Shown in pieces: positions 1 to 15,020 of a stretch of 16,644 nucleotides of DNA (its first letter is position 1; the number at the start of each line of letters is the position of its first letter). Made by a program: the position numbers and the translations under genes. This stretch comes from a virus. The notes under the pieces were generated by a model. The model saw only the letters and a list, made by a program, of their open reading frames with translations, ran no database searches and was not told where the DNA came from. The DNA lies in the UHGV virus genome UHGV-0060989; one strand, given 5' to 3'.

Positions 1-181
1 ATTTGAGTTTTGGGTTTAGCGTGACAAGTTTGCGAGGGTGATCGGAGTAATCAGTGAATAGCTCTCCTCCTACAATGACGTCATAACCATGATTTCTGGT
101 TTTCTGCCGTCCGTTATCAGTTCCCTCTGACCACGCCAGCATATCGAGGAACGCCTTACGTTGATTATTGATTTCCACCAT
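1..181 (-). CDS. R: Endolysin R (lambda-type lytic transglycosylase), N-terminal part only; gene continues beyond window start
   Basis: Reverse complement translates as [61 protein letters not shown], matching my recollection of lambda R. The ATG at 181..179 overlaps the S stop, as in lambda. Confidence 0.85.
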
Positions 182-488
182 CTTCTACTCCGGCTTTTTT
201 AGCAGCGAAGCGTTTGATAAGCGAACCAATCGAGTCAGTGCCGATGTAGCCGATGAACACGCTCGTTATATAAGCGAGATTGCTACTTAGTCCGGCGAAG
301 TCGAGAAGGTCACGAATGAACCAGGCGATAATGGCGCACATCGTTGCGTCGATTACTGTTTTTGTAAACGCACCGCCATTATATCTGCCGCGAAGGTACG
401 CCATTGCAAACGCAAGGATTGCCCCGATGCCTTGTTCCTTTGCCGCGAGAATGGCGGCTAACAGGTCATGTTTTTCTGGCATCTTCAT
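165..488 (-). CDS. S: Holin S (class I holin/antiholin with dual Met1-Lys2-Met3 start)
   Basis: 107 aa [42 protein letters not shown]... is essentially the lambda S protein as I recall it, with one C-terminal difference (GGNQ here versus GRNQ). It lies immediately upstream of R. Confidence 0.95.
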
Positions 489-811: not shown

Positions 812-886
812 TGGCGGGACAGCGTGGACTCGAACCACGATAAGAAGGTTAACAGCCTTCCGTAATGACCTTTATACGACTGACCC
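812..886 (-). tRNA. tRNA-like gene, probably tRNA-Asn (anticodon GUU), 75 nt with encoded CCA; one acceptor-stem mismatch
   Basis: Minus-strand sequence GGGTCAG-TC-GTAT-AAAGGTCA-TTAC-G-GAAGG-CTGTTAA-CCTTC-TTAT-CGTGG-TTCGAGT-CCACG-CTGTCCC-G-CCA. The anticodon stem and T-arm are perfect 5 bp helices and the T-loop GGTTCGAGTCC resembles E. coli tRNA-Asn. The acceptor stem has a T-T mismatch at pair 4-69. Confidence 0.5.
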
Positions 887-942: not shown

Positions 943-972
943 ATTATGGCTAAATGGCTAATTGCATGTCAA
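943..972 (-). promoter_or_regulatory. Candidate late promoter pR' (-35 TTGACA, 18 bp spacer, -10 CATAAT) overlapping the 3' end of Q
   Basis: Minus-sense TTGACAtgcaattagccatttagcCATAAT. Its position directly downstream of Q and upstream of the hairpin/U-tract fits a short late leader. Based on motif reading only. Confidence 0.35.
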
Positions 973-1468
973 GGCTTTTAACAGCAACATGCTTAACTTT
1001 CTCAACACGTTTACGCATTTTGAAAGCATTTTGCATTGGCTGGTATAAAACAAATAATGACGCTTTCAGGATGTCGTCAATTTCGTTTCTACAGGTTGCC
1101 AGTGAAGGTTTTCTCCATCCCTCGCCACCACGTCCACACATCTTGCGTGGCTTTGCAGTCGCGTGATAGTAGGATGCAATTGCTCGCTTAGATGAACCAT
1201 GAGCGTAGTAGCTGAGGAGGATGCCAAAGGCTTTTTTGTCAATGTACATGACGGAATCGACGACCTGAGAAATCAACATTCCATCATCATCATTGCACAT
1301 TGGCCTTGTCATAACTCTTCCCGGCTCTACGCTCTCCATGAACTTCGCTATTACGCTGCTCATGCGCTTTTCCAGACGACCTGAATAAACCCATGCGCCC
1401 CACAGTTCAAGCCAGCCATTCAGCCACTCGTGCTGCTCTTTGGTGAGGTTTAGTTCTCTTATGCCCAT
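950..1468 (-). CDS. Q: Late-gene antiterminator Q (non-lambda allele, Phage_antitermQ family)
   Basis: 172 aa ORF containing the ELWGAW motif and cysteine/histidine-rich segments. It sits between ninI and the lysis genes, has a GGGAGAAGG ribosome-binding site, and is not the lambda Q sequence. Confidence 0.8.
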
Positions 1469-7659: not shown

Positions 7660-8310
7660 ATGAATACACAACTGATGGGTGAGCGTATTCGCGCTCGCAG
7701 AAAAGAACTCAAGATTAGGCAGGCTGCCCTTGGCAAGATGGTTGGCGTGTCTAATGTTGCTATTTCCCAATGGGAGCGATCTGAAACTGAGCCCAATGGC
7801 GAAAACCTATTGGCCTTAGCCAAGGCTTTGCAGTGCTCCCCTGATTACCTGTTGAAAGGAGAGGATAGTCTTTCAAACATTGCCTATCACAGCAGGCATG
7901 ATCCAAGAGGTTCGTATCCTCTAATTAGTTGGGTAAGCGCAGGATGTTGGATGGAAGCTGTAGAGCCATATCATAGGCGTGCAATAGATAACTGGTACGA
8001 CACAACGGTAGATTGTTCTGAAGACTCTTTTTGGCTCGACGTTAAAGGCGATTCAATGACTGCCCCGGCAGGACTGAGTATTCCTGAGGGGATGATTATT
8101 CTCGTCGACCCAGAAGTCGAACCACGTAATGGAAAGCTGGTAGTCGCCAAACTTGAAGGAGAAAACGAGGCGACATTCAAAAAGTTAGTTATTGATGCCG
8201 GTAGAAAATTCCTGAAACCACTCAATCCACAATACCCAATGATTGAAATCAATGGGAACTGTAAAATCATTGGCGTTGTCGTTGATGCCAAGCTAGCAAA
8301 CCTTCCTTAA
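7660..8310 (+). CDS. c2: C2 repressor (P22-type CI-family repressor with LexA-like autocleavage domain)
   Basis: 216 aa MNTQLMGERIRARRKELKIRQAALGKMVGVSNVAISQWERSETEPNGENLLALAKALQCSPDYLLKG..., closely matching P22 C2. It has an N-terminal HTH and a C-terminal S24 peptidase-like domain. Confidence 0.95.
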   Translation: MNTQLMGERIRARRKELKIRQAALGKMVGVSNVAISQWERSETEPNGENLLALAKALQCSPDYLLKGEDSLSNIAYHSRHDPRGSYPLISWVSAGCWMEAVEPYHRRAIDNWYDTTVDCSEDSFWLDVKGDSMTAPAGLSIPEGMIILVDPEVEPRNGKLVVAKLEGENEATFKKLVIDAGRKFLKPLNPQYPMIEINGNCKIIGVVVDAKLANLP

Positions 8311-8375: not shown

Positions 8376-8430
8376 ATTAAGTTTTCTTCAAAAATGCACT
8401 TGACCAATAAATTAAGAAGTCTTAAATTTA
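8376..8430 (+). promoter_or_regulatory. OL/pL: leftward early promoter with operator sites
   Basis: -35 TTGACC (8400..8405), 17 bp spacer, -10 TAAATT (8423..8428). Operator-like ATTAAGAAGTCTTAAATT (8411..8428) overlaps the promoter; a weaker ATTAAGTTTTCTTCAAAA lies at 8376..8393. Confidence 0.6.
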
Positions 8431-8474: not shown

Positions 8475-8514
8475 GCTCTTTAACATCGACGGACTCTCAA
8501 CCTAACCGTTGAGA
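8475..8514 (+). promoter_or_regulatory. nutL (boxA GCTCTTTAACA plus boxB hairpin)
   Basis: GCTCTTTAA at 8475..8483, then hairpin UCUCAAC-cuaacc-GUUGAGA at 8495..8514, upstream of N. Confidence 0.6.
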
Positions 8515-8624: not shown

Positions 8625-8930
8625 ATGGTAACCATTGTCTGGAAAGAATCCAAAGGTACGGCAAAAAGCCGCTACAAAGCTCGCAGAGCAGAACTTATTG
8701 CCGAGCGACGCAGTAATGAAGCACTGGCGCGAAAAATTGCGCTAAAGCTCTCTGGTTGCGTCAGAGCAGACAAAGCAGCATCACTAGGAAGCCTTCGCTG
8801 CAAGAAGGCAGAAGAAGTCGAGCGTAAACAGAACCGTATTTACTACCGGAAGCCACGGAGTGAAATGGGTGTGACTTGCTCAGGCCGCCAGAAGCAACGC
8901 GGAAAATCAATTCCAGCTTATTACGATTGA
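8625..8930 (+). CDS. N: Antiterminator N (phi21-type arginine-rich motif)
   Basis: From the Met preceded by AAGGAG: MVTIVWKESKGTAKSRYKARRAELIAERR... The ARM GTAKSRYKARRAELIAER matches phi21 N as I recall it, and the C-terminus ...GVTCSGRQKQRGKSIP resembles the lambda N C-terminus. Confidence 0.85.
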   Translation: MVTIVWKESKGTAKSRYKARRAELIAERRSNEALARKIALKLSGCVRADKAASLGSLRCKKAEEVERKQNRIYYRKPRSEMGVTCSGRQKQRGKSIPAYYD

Positions 8931-8938
8931 GGTGAGCC

Positions 8939-9076
8939 ATGCTCAAGAAAGTCAAACGTCGACTTTACAAAGAAGGTAGATATTCATGCCAGTTGCCAAA
9001 ATGCGACACAACAAAATGGAGTGTCGATGATTGGTGTAACTGGATAGATAGATACGGAACTTGGTGGGATAAATAA
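8939..9076 (+). CDS. Hypothetical small protein (45 aa, Cys/Trp-rich)
   Basis: MLKKVKRRLYKEGRYSCQLPKCDTTKWSVDDWCNWIDRYGTWWDK with a GAGGTG ribosome-binding site, immediately after N. Not in the ORF track. Confidence 0.35.
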   Translation: MLKKVKRRLYKEGRYSCQLPKCDTTKWSVDDWCNWIDRYGTWWDK

Positions 9077-9130
9077 CAGGTAACTTAAGCGGATTTATTT
9101 TCGCAGCAAACCACTTATTTGAGGTGAGAT

Positions 9131-9382
9131 ATGGAGTTTCATGAAAGTGCGATTTGTGATTTTCGCGCTAACGCAAATTCAGTAAAACCACAGCCAATTG
9201 CAGTTCTTTTTAAAACAATGGGTGCGTGGGCTGTTTTATGCTTCGCCTCTGATGACACTGACGCGAGAATGGCAATAGGCCAAGAGATGGAGATGGACCC
9301 GACAAACGATGAATTCATAATTTATGGCGCTCCATCTAATTACTTACTTGATACCTGCAACATTTACAACAAGGCTGCCTGA
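9131..9382 (+). CDS. Hypothetical protein (83 aa), immediate-early position
   Basis: ORF with GAGGTGAGAT upstream of the ATG, same strand and operon as N. No family recognised. Confidence 0.55.
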   Translation: MEFHESAICDFRANANSVKPQPIAVLFKTMGAWAVLCFASDDTDARMAIGQEMEMDPTNDEFIIYGAPSNYLLDTCNIYNKAA

Positions 9383-9421
9383 TGGTGGCCTTTATTTTTG
9401 GCATAAACAACAGAGGCTAAC

Positions 9422-9718
9422 ATGGAATTTAAAGGTACTGAAGGTAAGTGGGAAATAATGATGGATGGCGATGAGATTAAAATCATCCAGGCAGACTCTC
9501 TTGAAAATGGCACAGGCTGGCGTTCGTATATTGCAATCTGTGAGGAAGTTCAATGCATTGAAGATGCCAATCTAATAGCGGCAGCACCTGACCTTCTCGA
9601 AGCACTTCAGTTATTACTTAAGCAATCCAAAAATAGAACAACGACAACATATCCAGAATGGTATGGAGCTGTTAATAAAGGTCTCGCAGCAATCAGAAAA
9701 GCCATAGGTGATGAGTAA
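9422..9718 (+). CDS. Hypothetical protein (98 aa) with an Ead/Ea22-like IAAAPDLLEAL motif
   Basis: ORF with an AGAGG ribosome-binding site. The motif ANLIAAAPDLLEALQ resembles ANAEFIAAANPATVLALL in the ORF at 13437..13964. Confidence 0.55.
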   Translation: MEFKGTEGKWEIMMDGDEIKIIQADSLENGTGWRSYIAICEEVQCIEDANLIAAAPDLLEALQLLLKQSKNRTTTTYPEWYGAVNKGLAAIRKAIGDE

Positions 9719-9876
9719 TGAATAAGAAATACATTGTTGAAGTTATAGAGCGAGAAACGAAAGAAGTAATTAAACATTTCGAATTTGATAATTATAGAAA
9801 AGCTGACCGCGTAGAAGAAGGATTGTTGCGACAAAGTAATCTCGAAAAATTTGATGTTGTCATGCGATGCGAATAA
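9718..9876 (+). CDS. Hypothetical small protein (52 aa), AT-rich
   Basis: MNKKYIVEVIERETKEVIKHFEFDNYRKADRVEEGLLRQSNLEKFDVVMRCE. The ATG overlaps the preceding stop (TAATG). Not in the ORF track. Confidence 0.4.
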   Translation: MNKKYIVEVIERETKEVIKHFEFDNYRKADRVEEGLLRQSNLEKFDVVMRCE

Positions 9877-9969
9877 GCGCCTATAGCAGATTTACGAGTC
9901 TGCTATGTGAGCAATGTCGCTCGTAACTAAACAGGAGCCGACTTGTTCTGATTATTGGAAATCTTCTTT

Positions 9970-9994
9970 GCCCTCCAGTGTGAGGGCTTTTTTA
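9970..9994 (+). terminator. tL1-like intrinsic terminator
   Basis: GCCCTC-cagtgt-GAGGGC followed by TTTTTTAT. Confidence 0.6.
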
Positions 9995-10009
9995 TATGCA
10001 TACCAATAA

Positions 10010-10030
10010 CGCTTCACTCGAGGCGTTTTT
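10010..10030 (+). terminator. Second, weaker hairpin plus T-tract (tandem terminator)
   Basis: CGCTTC-actc-GAGGCG followed by TTTTT. Confidence 0.4.
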
Positions 10031-10060
10031 CGTTATGCAATCAAATATAAGGAGTTACCC

Positions 10061-10195
10061 ATGATGCACTTTCAGCTCGCGGGTAGCGGCGTCATGTCCG
10101 CTTTCTACCCGCACGAATCTGAATTATCACGCCGAGTTAAACAACTAATCAGAGCAGCAAAGAAACAACTGGAGGCGTTATGCGCAATGAAATAG
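10061..10195 (+). CDS. cIII: CIII-like protein (FtsH inhibitor family), 44 aa
   Basis: MMHFQLAGSGVMSAFYPHESELSRRVKQLIRAAKKQLEALCAMK with a strong AAGGAG site. The central region parallels lambda CIII (AG...ESLLERITRKL) and the position is right after the tL1-like terminators. Confidence 0.6.
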   Translation: MMHFQLAGSGVMSAFYPHESELSRRVKQLIRAAKKQLEALCAMK

Positions 10196-10332
10196 CCATT
10201 AATCACCAGATGCTTCGTGCGGCACAAAACAAAGCAGTAATAGCCAGATTTATTGGTGATTCAAAAATGTGGCTTGAAGCAAATAAAGCGATGAAATCAG
10301 CTATCAACCTTCCGTGGTATCGCAGGAAATGA
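10180..10332 (+). CDS. Kil-like small protein (50 aa), tentative
   Basis: MRNEIAINHQMLRAAQNKAVIARFIGDSKMWLEANKAMKSAINLPWYRRK. Position directly after cIII with overlapping start. The resemblance to lambda Kil rests on my uncertain recollection of that sequence. Confidence 0.4.
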   Translation: MRNEIAINHQMLRAAQNKAVIARFIGDSKMWLEANKAMKSAINLPWYRRK

Positions 10333-10413: not shown

Positions 10414-10725
10414 ATGATGATTCTGACTCTGAATGATAAGCGTGAAATATCGCAAATAATCGCAAGTTTTACTGATGAAGATTACGAGCGAATCAACAGT
10501 GAAGTTGATCGCCTCTGCAAACGTTGCGACCCAATAAGCGAAATGCTTCGCTCATATAAACCAGATGAACACACTAAGGACGCTATCGACTGGTTGGAAG
10601 ATGATGACTGTAACTATCAGGAAAAAGCCGCTGAATGGTTCTGGGATGCAATAACCGAAAGAGTTAAGGCTGAATATGCCTTCGCAATATTCAAACGCAG
10701 ACACATTTATGGAGAAGCAGCATGA
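10414..10725 (+). CDS. Hypothetical acidic protein (103 aa) at the gam/abc position upstream of recT
   Basis: ORF with an AGGAG ribosome-binding site. Its stop overlaps the recT start. No family recognised. Confidence 0.6.
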   Translation: MMILTLNDKREISQIIASFTDEDYERINSEVDRLCKRCDPISEMLRSYKPDEHTKDAIDWLEDDDCNYQEKAAEWFWDAITERVKAEYAFAIFKRRHIYGEAA

Positions 10726-13148: not shown

Positions 13149-13450
13149 CAATCACAAAACAACGGGTAGAAGAAATCATATCCCGCATTGAAATGTATGG
13201 ACATGGTGCAGGATATACCGCTGACGAGGTTTATGACCTAGCTGTACTGGCGCTGAATTTATCAAATATCGCAAACCTGAAGCGATACGAGCTTGATATG
13301 GGAGGTTGTGACTCATGCGGTCAGGATTGTGGCGCTGACATGACTGAAGATTCTGATGGCGATTATGTCCTGTTTGATGACGTGGTTAAGTTGTTTGAGT
13401 TTGATACATTCGAAAGCCCAGCAAGGGAGACAACCAGTGAGCAAGATTGA
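13145..13450 (+). CDS. Hypothetical protein (101 aa) with acidic C-terminus
   Basis: ORF with a GGTGAG ribosome-binding site and start overlapping the preceding stop. Confidence 0.55.
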   Translation: MTITKQRVEEIISRIEMYGHGAGYTADEVYDLAVLALNLSNIANLKRYELDMGGCDSCGQDCGADMTEDSDGDYVLFDDVVKLFEFDTFESPARETTSEQD

Positions 13451-13964
13451 CTATCAGGCACTGCGTGAGGCGGCAGAAAAAGCAACGTGTGGCGTGTGGT
13501 CGCTCGAATATGGAGAGGAGAGATTTGATGCTGGTGATGCGCTAATTCATCGTGAAGTTGTTGGATATCTTCCCATTTGCAGAATTGAAGGAGCGCATCC
13601 TGAAAGCGGTTTCGATGAAGATTTCCAAATGGAACAGCAGGCCAATGCTGAATTCATCGCCGCAGCCAATCCGGCTACCGTGCTGGCACTACTGGATGAA
13701 CGGGAAAGAAACCAGCAATACATCAAACGCCGCGACCAGGAGAACGAGGATATTGCGCTAACGGTAGGGAAGCTGCGTGTTGAGCTGGAAGCCGCAGAGA
13801 AGCGCATTGCAGAACTGGAAGCACGGGAAATATCGCTCCCAGAACGTAGCAGCATGCTTCATCGAACAGATTTTCACGATGATTACCAAACGGTAATGGC
13901 ATACAAAGTTTCTGAAGTCATCGATGCAATCCGCGCTACTGGCATTCGCATCAAAGGAGAGTGA
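13437..13964 (+). CDS. Ead/Ea22-like protein (about 175 aa), probable GTG start
   Basis: Contains ANAEFIAAANPATVLALLDERE and a coiled-coil C-terminal region (LRVELEAAEKRIAELEA). GGGAGA lies upstream of the GTG. The longer track ORF begins in the previous gene. Confidence 0.55.
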   Translation: MSKIDYQALREAAEKATCGVWSLEYGEERFDAGDALIHREVVGYLPICRIEGAHPESGFDEDFQMEQQANAEFIAAANPATVLALLDERERNQQYIKRRDQENEDIALTVGKLRVELEAAEKRIAELEAREISLPERSSMLHRTDFHDDYQTVMAYKVSEVIDAIRATGIRIKGE

Positions 13965-14159: not shown

Positions 14160-15020
14160 ATGACCACTATTACCAAAGAGCGACTGCTGACAATCAAGCA
14201 GTGGCGCGAAACATACGGACCTGGTAGCAACGTTGTACTGCCAGCAGAAGAAGCGGAAGAACTGGCACGAATTGCTCTGGCATCGCTGGAAGCAGAACCA
14301 GTTGCTTATATTTTCAAACATCCGGCCGGGAAATTATTCTGGGCTTTAACGGATGAAAGCAATAAAGAGCAAGCTGACGTTATTCCTGTTTATGCTGCCG
14401 CGCCTGCGTCGGTTGTGCCGGATAATGCATCAGAGCCTCTTGCTTATGCTTACAAAGAGCTTACGCCTGAGATTATGCGCAACCATTTAGCTGTATTCGA
14501 GCGATATGGAATAGCCCCAAACGATAGCTCTACCACAATTCAGGCACTGCGAATCGCGCTGGATGGCATAGAGCGGAGCGACGCGATGCTTCATGGTGCC
14601 GAACCTGTAAGCCAAACTTACAAGTTGCCAGTTAATACACCTTGCAAAGATGCGCCAGCCCATATCTGGCTGCAAACGGCTGGAGTATGGCCAGAAGATG
14701 GCGAGTTAAGCGAATTAACGTGGTGCAGCCACAATCAGCACCATGATGACACGCTATATGTTCGAGCTGACTTGGTAAATGGCAACTCTCCGGTAACTCC
14801 GGATGGTTGGATAAGCTGTAGTGAGCGAATGCCTGAAATTAGACAAACAGTTATTGGATGGAATGGATATGCAGTTAGACAATGCGTATATACAAGGAAT
14901 GAATATGCCAAGACACAGAAAGGCAGAGAGCCAAGGTTTGAAACCTTAACTGGTATATGGCATGGAGTAACCCACTGGATGCCGCTACCAGAACCGCCGC
15001 AGGAGGTTAACCATGGCTAA
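14160..15020 (+). CDS. Hypothetical protein with C-terminal DUF551-like domain (286 aa)
   Basis: The C-terminal segment DGWISCSERMPE...GWNGYAVRQCVY...THWMPLPEPP is typical of the DUF551 phage domain. An AAGGTG ribosome-binding site lies upstream. Confidence 0.65.
   Translation: MTTITKERLLTIKQWRETYGPGSNVVLPAEEAEELARIALASLEAEPVAYIFKHPAGKLFWALTDESNKEQADVIPVYAAAPASVVPDNASEPLAYAYKELTPEIMRNHLAVFERYGIAPNDSSTTIQALRIALDGIERSDAMLHGAEPVSQTYKLPVNTPCKDAPAHIWLQTAGVWPEDGELSELTWCSHNQHHDDTLYVRADLVNGNSPVTPDGWISCSERMPEIRQTVIGWNGYAVRQCVYTRNEYAKTQKGREPRFETLTGIWHGVTHWMPLPEPPQEVNHG

Follow-up and report, generated by a model that had tools for sequence, protein, structure and literature searches.

The segment studied lies in a window of 16,644 nucleotides, the whole stretch of DNA analysed from the virus genome UHGV-0060989. 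Four open reading frames of 45, 83, 98 and 52 aa (ORF1 to ORF4) were confirmed on the + strand between positions 8939 and 9876, flanked by a phage-21-type N gene (8625-8930) on one side and by cIII (10061-10195) on the other. A sequence-only reading had placed four small ORFs 3' of N and expected their expression from pL, and the coordinates agree with this placement; lambda and phage 21 have ral at the same place. The features of the locus were as follows.

8400..8428, + strand: putative pL-like promoter (TTGACC, 17-nt spacer, TAAATT), found by consensus scan and corresponding by alignment to pL and OL as annotated in phage 21
8475..8514, + strand: putative nutL, with a boxA-like element GCTCTTTAAC (8475-8484) and a phage-21-type boxB hairpin (8495-8514), found by sequence inspection
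8625..8930, + strand: N antiterminator of the phage 21 type, 101 aa, ATG at 8625 (phrog_271, E 3e-36)
8939..9076, + strand: ORF1, 45 aa, basic (pI 9.4), an optional cassette adjoining N (PF17583, phrog_1871)
9103..9127, + strand: 5' junction of the ral slot, the 25-mer GCAGCAAACCACTTATTTGAGGTGA, with a Shine-Dalgarno site for any following cassette and identical copies elsewhere
9131..9382, + strand: ORF2, 83 aa, acidic (pI 4.2), a narrow lambdoid orphan (phrog_2471)
9371..9401, + strand: predicted terminator A, a 9-bp G+C-rich hairpin (stem 9371-9392) followed by UUUAUUUUU (-13.9 kcal/mol)
9422..9718, + strand: ORF3, 98 aa, acidic (pI 4.5) (phrog_1273; probably PF27050)
9718..9876, + strand: ORF4, 52 aa, a narrow orphan (phrog_6949)
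9882..9907, + strand: 11-bp hairpin right after ORF4, without a U-run (-15.9 kcal/mol, z-score -2.5)
9970..9995, + strand: predicted terminator B, GCCCUC...GAGGGC (9970-9987) followed by UUUUUUAU (hairpin and U-run)
10008..10035, + strand: predicted terminator C, AACGCUUC...GAGGCGUU (10008-10027) followed by UUUUCGUU (hairpin and U-run)
10061..10195, + strand: cIII, the conserved downstream limit of the accessory region (Pfam cIII, E 2e-30)
10180-10332: kil, after cIII (Pfam Lambda_Kil, E 2e-20)

The N gene shares ~96% DNA identity with phage 21 N and scored E 1e-4 against Pfam N_peptide, under the gathering score. The nutL coordinates were carried over from the phage 21 annotation through a megablast match, with window position 8500 as position 1 of the query. 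Judged from the sequence, the entire operon is driven by the pL-like promoter at 8400..8428, and the promoter signal inside the segment was at background level (6 promoter-like sites against 4.2 expected). Each of the four ORFs is preceded, 5-8 nt upstream, by a Shine-Dalgarno-like motif. Rfam gave no match within the segment, and ea10 is missing from this window. The cluster, earlier described as AT-rich relative to its flanks, is modestly so: its G+C content is 39.6%, whereas the whole window has 46.0% and N has 49.3%; that of ORF4 is 32%.

Terminators A, B and C are predicted intrinsic terminators, each comprising a G+C-rich hairpin directly followed by a U-run. Terminator A, which was absent from the sequence-only reading, sits between ORF2 and ORF3 and splits the cluster in two; its 5' arm is made up of the K-A-A codons and stop of ORF2, whose stop it overlaps. 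ORF1 and ORF2 precede every intrinsic terminator and can therefore be made along with N, whereas transcription has to pass terminator A to reach ORF3 and ORF4, which, on sequence grounds, should thus need N antitermination. The immediate-early position proposed for all four ORFs would accordingly hold for the first two and not for the last two. The tandem terminator described after the cluster is present (B and C), but it is not tL1-like and instead matches the pair flanking ea10 in lambda and phage 21: by alignment and annotation, terminator B is the counterpart of the terminator 5' of ea10 in lambda (33950-33933) and phage 21, and by alignment terminator C is that of the ea10/cIII intergenic terminator in lambda (33512-33493) and phage 21. 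We take the two lambda terminators to be tL2a and tL2b, not tL1. The hairpin at 9882-9907 was also considered as an intrinsic terminator and was rejected, as it has no U-run; it could serve to stabilise a 3' end or as a processing site.

All four ORFs are real, conserved phage genes under purifying selection. Near full-length matches to PHROG families of unknown function were obtained for ORF1 (phrog_1871, E 1.4e-22), ORF2 (phrog_2471, E 2.9e-61), ORF3 (phrog_1273, E 5.9e-31) and ORF4 (phrog_6949, E 3.2e-40), and the pooled pN/pS values against related copies were 0.18, 0.14, 0.21 and 0.06, respectively. The exact ORF1, ORF2 and ORF4 proteins were each found on at least ~1,000 public contigs, and the exact ORF3 protein on 47. 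The conservation that the sequence-only reading had left to be checked is thus borne out by the PHROG families, by a survey of 160 loci and by pN/pS values of 0.06-0.21. It could be argued that some of the ORFs are chance frames in an AT-rich spacer, since they are very short, AT-rich and of no known function. This idea is effectively refuted by the family matches for all four (E 1e-22 to 3e-61), by the low pN/pS, by cross-genus conservation (of ORF1 as far as the T-even phages, and of ORF3 in genera including Salmonella and Enterobacter) and by the conservation of Shine-Dalgarno sites and of the stop/start overlap; in the segment's other frames and on its opposite strand, no ORF had a family match, save one of 44 aa. 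That 44-aa frame, which spans terminator A, matches phrog_31828, a family that probably consists of miscalled ORFs.

ORF1 scored 46.7 bits with PF17583 (DUF5484), for which the cut-off is 27, residues 5-42 aligning with profile positions 3-41 of 43. Its sequence is identical to the Sf6 gene 36 protein and ~50% identical to T-even gp55.4, and the family occurs in >900 phage records. Residues K6, R7, L9, K11, G13, Y15, P20, K21, D23, T24, W27, W32, I36, D37, G40 and W42 are held in common with the T2, JS10 and Klebsiella phage homologues. The contexts differ, as gp55.4 belongs to the 55.1-55.8 early accessory cluster near nrdH, whereas ORF1 follows N in the pL operon. ORF1 is indeed Cys/Trp-rich, as had been noted, with 3 Cys and 5 Trp among its 45 residues. 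A role as a Cys-based metal binder was considered and rejected: the three Cys are confined to the lambdoid branch and are not kept across the family, which makes a metal site unlikely.

The ORF3 family is large (5,821 clusters or more), and virulent myophages of ~145 kb also have the N-terminal half of the protein. The PF27050 assignment was precomputed on cluster representatives 95-96% identical to ORF3, direct Pfam and NCBIfam profile searches of ORF3 itself giving no match, and a near-identical variant is named 'XkdD/Y8K6 family phage-associated protein' in RefSeq. Relatives within PF27050 / XkdD-Y8K6 include P22 orf78 and ORF18 of the P22-like phage ST104, where the ORF3 homologue likewise lies between ral and c3. 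Across the family, invariant scaffold residues flank hypervariable segments: an N-terminal FKGTxGxW, a LIAAAPDLLEALQ helix and a C-terminal AAIxKALGE enclose two variable segments, and the AlphaFold2 model (pLDDT 72.8) comprises a small beta sheet and a helical hairpin. The GTxGxW and LIAAAP motifs raised the candidate of an Ead/Ea22 relative (PF13935), which was dropped: there was no Pfam match, and the hhalign probability between the ORF3 family and the window's own Ead/Ea22 protein (13356-13964) was 0.5%.

No more than 7 phage records contain ORF4. The gene is translationally coupled to ORF3, its ATG overlapping the stop codon of the latter (TAATG); this stop/start overlap was present in 43 of 43 loci, and the coupled slot after ORF3 is also taken by at least 4-5 alternative genes. 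The variable segment of ORF3 did not covary with the gene that follows, one ORF3 type being found with all partner types. The last 3-4 ORF3 codons alone track the partner, and these codons mark the recombination junction.

Searches for function by sequence in Pfam, NCBIfam, PADLOC and the PDB were empty or uninformative. PADLOC returned no match for ORF1 to ORF4 with E-values allowed up to 1, PDB sequence searches with ORF2 and ORF3 gave chance-level hits only, and nothing usable was found in the literature on DUF5484, the PHROG ids, XkdD, the protein accessions or tL2a/tL2b. ORF2 and ORF3 are moderately acidic, with a net charge of ~-7; the ORF3 model has no match to Ocr or ArdA, and the ORF2 model is poor. 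GRAVY is negative for all four products, and as none is hydrophobic overall, membrane segments are unlikely; the TMHMM column in the data of Silas et al. gives 0 segments for ORF2 and ORF4. The products are probably small cytoplasmic proteins with neither enzyme motifs nor membrane segments.

The relationship between the four ORFs was studied in a survey of 160 IMG/VR loci between N and cIII. The order of elements was fixed, N - [ORF1] - [ral slot] - [ORF3] - [ORF4 slot] - [ea10] - cIII, and each ORF was present or absent independently of the others, giving dozens of architectures. The ORFs had earlier been treated as one cluster; they are four independently assorting cassettes, not a single unit. 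The gap from ORF2 to ORF3 was 42 nt in all 40 loci with this arrangement, and the same gap separated ral from ORF3 in 13 of 18. We are highly confident that the segment represents, in this prophage, the accessory hotspot that lambdoid and P22-like phages have between N and cIII. Like the accessory regions of Silas et al., it holds variable small genes between conserved bounds, here N and cIII. Those authors named this region the 'Ral' accessory region, placed it second by score on a manually inspected top-scoring list of enterobacteriophage accessory regions, and called several related regions 'RalSupEx' (10.1101/2023.04.06.535777). In lambda, all pL genes save N are dispensable, ral being conditionally essential on type I restriction hosts (PMC10695390). 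Because the four ORFs fill swap-in slots of an already described lambda-like hotspot, the finding is correct but largely known.

The second slot, the ral slot, has conserved junctions. The 25-mer at 9103..9127 is identical 5' of orf28-ral in phage 21 and 5' of orf184 in mEp213, and exact matches were found on at least 120 IMG/VR contigs with ~ten different cassettes downstream. On 120 such contigs the next gene was orf28-ral (52), a 156-aa gene (32), ORF2 (14), a two-transmembrane protein (6), orf184 (5) or others. Terminator A doubles as the 3' junction of this slot, its sequence recurring 3' of ral in phage 21 and lambda (34095-34070) and 3' of mEp213 orf184. The 25-mer and the terminator are thus found on either side of three different cassettes: orf28-ral (phage 21 and lambda), orf184 (mEp213) and ORF2 (this window). 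ORF2 and ral were found together in none of the 160 loci. ORF2 is a positional allele of orf28-ral, and it is allelic with orf184 too.

ORF2 ends in NKAA and lambda Ral in NNKAA, a likeness previously thought possibly coincidental. It is not, because the last codons, the stop and the terminator hairpin form a conserved mosaic junction common to ral, ORF2 and orf184. ORF2 thus shares with orf28-ral the slot, the 25-nt upstream junction, the Shine-Dalgarno site, the ATGGA start context, the NKAA codons, stop and hairpin, and, where ORF3 is present, the 42-nt spacing to it. Outside the junctions, however, there is no sequence similarity, DNA identity between ral and the segment being confined to them, and orf28-ral comprises two overlapping genes whereas ORF2 is a single gene. 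The comparison with mEp213 orf184 is similar: it occupies the same slot with identical junctions, ends in DKAA and is likewise small and acidic, but its sequence is unrelated to that of ORF2. ORF2 is itself narrowly distributed: clustering gives just 16 clusters when done at 90% identity and leaves 6 representatives at 50%, and the protein has no Pfam or NCBIfam match. An exhaustive HMMER search recovered close relatives only, apart from a 3,126-aa repeat protein (E 7e-34, 42 stretches, 28% identity) that was judged an artefact of weak hits summed over repeats.

Anti-restriction had been proposed as a plausible role for the cluster. As to position, this stands for ORF2, which alone, like Ral, directly precedes the terminator that follows ral in the pL operon; as to sequence, none of the ORFs is Ral-like, no Pfam or NCBIfam model of the Ral family PF11058 matching any of them even with E-values allowed up to 1. 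A Ral-like role for ORF2, or less plausibly for others of the four, in shielding unmodified DNA from type I restriction-modification would fit the shared junctions and the mutual exclusion with ral, and ORF2 (pI 4.2) and ORF3 (pI 4.5) are acidic, as are the DNA mimics Ocr and ArdA (pI ~4). However, Ral is basic (pI 8.8) and carries a Cys cluster, whereas ORF2 is acidic and has none, and other alleles of the slot, such as the two-transmembrane protein and orf184, are clearly not Ral-like.

A published screen also bears on this question. Silas et al. built a library of 200 accessory genes and expressed it in ECOR strains, either unchallenged or exposed to 8 phages, for a total of 45 phage-host pairings (10.1101/2023.04.06.535777). 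ORF2 corresponds to orf60 (UDP0060) of that library with one residue different, ORF4 is identical to orf149 (UDP0149), and ORF3 has a relative in orf110; ORF1 is not in the library. The authors had chosen orf60 and orf149 from accessory regions of this kind. The type I inhibitors Ocr, Ral and ArdA sensitised ECOR hosts in the same screen (10.1101/2023.04.06.535777), while orf60, orf110 and orf149 are absent from the authors' list of accessory genes that gave a phenotype. This absence argues against broad or strong counter-defence or toxicity, at least where the genes are expressed one at a time in these strains. Of the alleles of the slot, Ral acts against type I restriction and orf184 sets off abortive infection by gop-beta-cII (10.1101/2023.04.06.535777); by comparison, neither a type I anti-restriction phenotype nor cell death with gop-beta-cII is reported for orf60. 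Both orf60 and orf149 were in the same pools as the known inhibitors. Overall, type I anti-restriction is a very unlikely function for these ORFs.

It could also be that the ORFs serve the lysogen as defence or superinfection-exclusion genes, like the neighbouring sieB, rexAB and P22 gene 17. The hotspot of relatives does carry sieB (lambda, ST104), gene 17 (ST104) and a 'superinfection exclusion protein' (Stx phages), and the 'RalSupEx' name points the same way. The ORFs, however, lie on the repressor-silenced pL transcript and so should be silent in a lysogen, and promoter signals within the segment do not exceed background. Their products, none of them hydrophobic overall, lack PADLOC matches, and the TMHMM result for ORF2 and ORF4 is against membrane segments. 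The screening platform was able to detect protective accessory genes as well, in some hosts (10.1101/2023.04.06.535777), and none of these genes is listed as a hit. We consider a role in exclusion quite unlikely.

A third alternative is that the ORFs modulate the phage programme or host physiology (lysis-lysogeny, cell division, recombination) in the manner of their neighbours cIII and Kil. The cIII protein is an FtsH inhibitor and Kil an FtsZ inhibitor, and the ORFs have the operon, size class and early timing in common with both genes. The presence of the ORF1 family in virulent T-even phages and of the N-terminal half of ORF3 in virulent myophages fits host takeover better than a lysogeny role. 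Nevertheless, the highly variable presence, absence and allele replacement among otherwise similar phages is more typical of arms-race genes, and orf60 and orf149 are unlisted among phenotypes that would include strain-specific lethality. Modulation of this kind appears unlikely.

The best explanation of these data is that recombination swaps dispensable cassettes in four successive slots at short conserved junctions, namely the Shine-Dalgarno 25-mer 5' of the ral slot, the KAA-stop-terminator hairpin 3' of it, and the stop/start overlap between ORF3 and the next gene. Transcription from pL would cover all four ORFs on infection or once repressor is lost, and ORF3 and ORF4 would be translated as a coupled pair. 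The role favoured for the products is that early after infection they would bind proteins of the host or of competitors, as counter-defence factors or host modulators, with a benefit limited to particular hosts, as with Ral. The target of ORF2 would be something other than type I restriction, and ORF3 may display two variable surfaces on its conserved beta-sheet and helical-hairpin scaffold. A role of the products as counter-defence factors or host modulators is held tentatively; the anatomy and that role, taken together, make up a reading that we regard as probable. A bolder version is doubtful: the ral slot could be an allelic counter-defence series, resembling an anti-CRISPR locus, in which each cassette (Ral, orf184, ORF2, the 156-aa gene and others) disarms a different immunity, the ORF2 target being missing or masked in the ECOR strains screened, and in which the conserved ORF3 scaffold, showing two hypervariable surfaces, acts with its swappable coupled partner (ORF4 or the alternatives) as a two-protein binder that diversifies in an arms race.

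The present value of the analysis lies mainly in tidy annotation, with the NKAA end explained and a terminator placed inside the cluster, and two of the four genes (ORF2 and ORF4) have already been screened with no phenotype reported. Should any cassette prove to be a counter-defence factor, it would bring new small inhibitors, and by way of these new host immune targets, into the arms race between phages and E. coli or Salmonella. The precise junctions would give a simple rule by which all alleles of the slot could be harvested from sequence databases.

The hotspot resembles anti-CRISPR loci, T-even Ip loci and the T7 ocr region, which likewise combine conserved flanks, many unrelated small alternatives, independent assortment and at least one proven counter-defence member (here Ral). 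It differs from them in that counter-defence is proven here for one allele only, and in that its swap points are unusually precise and themselves carry functional signals, namely Shine-Dalgarno sites and terminator hairpins.

The window is a mosaic lambdoid prophage segment, and no phage record matched it over its whole length. The minus strand carries, from the left, a holin gene, two tRNAs, Q, nin genes, a DnaB-like helicase gene, O, cII and cro. On the plus strand cI, a pL-like promoter, nutL and N, the last two of phage 21 type, lead into four ORFs, which are followed by cIII, kil, a 103-aa ORF, RecT, Gp157, an Ead/Ea22-like gene, a DUF551 protein and integrase. Given the gene layout of the two strands, the plus strand corresponds to the leftward (pL) direction of lambda. 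Recombination functions consist of RecT and Gp157 instead of Bet and Exo; gam was not found. The features concerned are:

165-488, minus strand, holin gene
731-806 and 812-886, minus strand, tRNA pair Thr(tgt) and Asn(gtt), between the holin and Q genes
950-1468, minus strand, Q antiterminator gene
7660-8310, plus strand, cI
8400-8428, plus strand, pL-like promoter
8625-8930, plus strand, N
8939-9076, plus strand, ORF1 (45 aa)
9131-9382, plus strand, ORF2 (83 aa)
9371-9392, plus strand, terminator A, overlapping the ORF2 stop codon, between ORF2 and ORF3
9422-9718, plus strand, ORF3 (98 aa)
9718-9876, plus strand, ORF4 (52 aa)
9970-9987, plus strand, terminator B, hairpin with U-run
10008-10027, plus strand, terminator C, hairpin with U-run
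10414-10725, plus strand, 103-aa ORF (phrog_3486) between kil and RecT, with C-terminal GEAA
13356-13964, plus strand, Ead/Ea22-like protein, farther along the pL operon
14160-15020, plus strand, DUF551 protein, likewise

The coordinates and lengths that the sequence-only reading had assigned to the four ORFs were confirmed, as was the AT-richness of the cluster (G+C 39.6% against 46.0% in the window). A Shine-Dalgarno motif lies upstream of every ORF, and all four gave full-length matches to PHROG families annotated as unknown function (E 1e-22 to 3e-61). Pooled pN/pS against related copies, from pairwise, phylogenetically non-independent values against the window copy, was far below 1 throughout (ORF1 0.18, ORF2 0.14, ORF3 0.21, ORF4 0.06), and conservation and profile matches together indicate that the ORFs are real. 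Proteins identical to ORF1, ORF2 and ORF4 each occur on at least about 1,000 contigs in public collections; identical ORF3 was present on 47, and its cluster has 653 members. Opposite-strand frames of the segment gave no family matches. A 44-aa plus-strand frame (9324-9458), running from the end of ORF2 through terminator A to the start of ORF3, matched phrog_31828 (E 1e-22), a family probably built on miscalled ORFs.

The setting of ORF2 was studied by aligning the window with phage 21, reading mEp213 and locating the motifs in lambda. The orf28-ral cassette of lambda and phage 21, orf184 of mEp213 and ORF2 share two junctions and are otherwise unrelated. The upstream junction of this ral slot is the 25-mer GCAGCAAACCACTTATTTGAGGTGA, which includes a Shine-Dalgarno site, and the downstream junction runs from the last codons through the stop codon to the hairpin of terminator A. 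The 5' arm of this hairpin, AAG GCY GC(C/A), encodes K-A-A; since these codons build the arm, the NKAA ending of ORF2 was inherited as junction DNA and reflects neither convergence nor chance. The common junction in phage 21, mEp213 and lambda thus refutes the suggestion that the likeness to lambda Ral might be coincidental. Endings of the xKAA/xEAA type with a hairpin-adjacent stop were seen in several pL operon cassettes (Ral, ORF2, orf184 and Ea10).

ORF2 and ral co-occurred in 0 of 160 IMG/VR loci for which ORF2 or ORF3 served as the anchor, and in such loci ORF3 sits downstream of either gene at the same spacing of 42 nt. The 25-mer itself was detected in at least 120 contigs by scanning. 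Among the matches listed, it was followed by orf28-ral (52), a 156-aa gene (32) or ORF2 (14) and more rarely by a two-transmembrane protein (6), orf184 (5), a 62-aa gene (2) or one of four singletons. No remote relatives of ORF2 were found, and its predicted structure was unreliable. A 3,126-aa protein (P0210) of ~42 near-identical repeats of ~74 aa each matched ORF2 at E 7e-34 by summed weak matches; it matches DUF3333 and Imm58 in a similarly diffuse way, and the hit was treated as an artefact, though a protein of this kind is unusual.

Three hairpin and U-run terminators were identified, not two, and A, B and C lie at lambda positions 34095-34070, 33950-33933 and 33512-33493. The tandem terminators proposed to follow the cluster are therefore present as B and C, but the label tL1-like does not hold, as their sequences are the flanks of ea10 in phage 21 and lambda; they stand in tandem here because ea10 is missing from the window. 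The Rho-dependent tL1 is closer to N, and we take the lambda counterparts of B and C to be the sites named tL2a and tL2b. Immediate-early expression from pL remains plausible for ORF1 and ORF2, which precede terminator A and could be transcribed together with N, but would not extend to ORF3 and ORF4, which lie behind A and whose transcription would require N-dependent read-through. A stable 11-bp hairpin without a U-run (9882-9907, plus strand, -15.9 kcal/mol) lies immediately 3' of ORF4, and at the equivalent place phage 21 has another hairpin, upstream of the conserved GAGCAATGTCGCTCG block.

The ORF3 family is large: by profile search it comprises at least 5,821 clusters formed at 90% identity, which carry the precomputed assignment PF27050; one variant is named XkdD/Y8K6 family in RefSeq. 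P22-like homologues such as ST104 ORF18 likewise lie between ral and c3. Family alignments showed three invariant blocks (an FKGTxGxW start, an LIAAAP(D/E)LLxALQ helix and an AAIxKALGE end), and the two segments between them each exist in several unrelated versions. The N-terminal half (residues 4-52) is 45-55% identical to sequences in virulent myophages of ~145 kb from Klebsiella, Cronobacter, Proteus and Salmonella (records H82-H122), the match straddling two annotated CDSs in several records. The structure model (pLDDT 72.8) predicts a small sheet with a helical hairpin and matched only generic hairpins. A suspected relationship to Ead/Ea22 was rejected. ORF4 is a narrow orphan, identical in all 7 phage records; its start overlapped the ORF3 stop in 43 of 43 loci, and at least four further gene types occupy this coupled position.

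ORF1 is an optional cassette immediately 3' of N. Its Pfam family is DUF5484; the Sf6 gene 36 protein has exactly its sequence, and T-even gp55.4 (>900 records) is ~50% identical to it. Three of its Trp residues are conserved in gp55.4-type homologues, whereas its Cys residues are not.

All four ORFs rarely occur together (2 of 80 ORF2-anchored loci, L025 included), and complete E. coli genomes covered at most 84% of the segment. In mEp213 (locus L165, JQ182733.1 29300-34000) two different N antiterminator genes stand in tandem; a 62-aa gene, an ORF3-like gene and ORF4 come after the first, and a 74-aa gene and orf184 after the second. In related prophages of E. coli VCSW5 and ZF8-1 (L002, L003), a 122-aa gene separates cI from N, and a 969-bp gene described as 'coiled-coil/TolA-like', resembling Sf6 gene 33, separates the ORF3/ORF4 slots from cIII. 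One relative bears an insertion near N that encodes an 'Nmad5 family nucleotide modification protein'.

Searches of the ORFs against Pfam, NCBIfam, PADLOC and PDB sequences returned nothing beyond the families already named. Silas et al. ranked accessory regions of enterobacteriophages (bioRxiv 10.1101/2023.04.06.535777; Nat Commun 2025, PMC12373910), and in the list that they inspected by hand the 'Ral' region had the second-highest score (10.1101/2023.04.06.535777). Their 200-gene library contains ORF2 bar one residue (UDP0060, orf60), ORF4 exactly (UDP0149, orf149) and a distant ORF3-family member (UDP0110, orf110); Ral, orf184 and the two-transmembrane allele are also in it. Library members were expressed in ECOR strains, both without phage and under challenge with 8 phages in 45 phage-host combinations. 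In the authors' account, phenotypes came from orf7, 24, 48, 63, 92, 98, 116, 126, 143, 145, 148 and 184 and known controls, a list from which orf60, orf110 and orf149 are absent; orf184, the slot-mate of ORF2, triggered gop-beta-cII.

The four ORFs are thus real but ordinary: uncharacterised accessory genes, conserved and already known, in a hotspot that is known as well, to which the present analysis adds the slot-and-junction anatomy, an internal terminator, an explanation of NKAA and a tie to an existing screen. As their most likely role we would tentatively suggest that the products are made early, bind proteins and serve counter-defence or host modulation, being useful only under certain conditions; this is rated at less than even confidence because the available experimental data are negative and concern single genes in a limited host set. 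In lambda, all pL genes bar N are dispensable, and ral is needed only on type I restriction hosts (PMC10695390).
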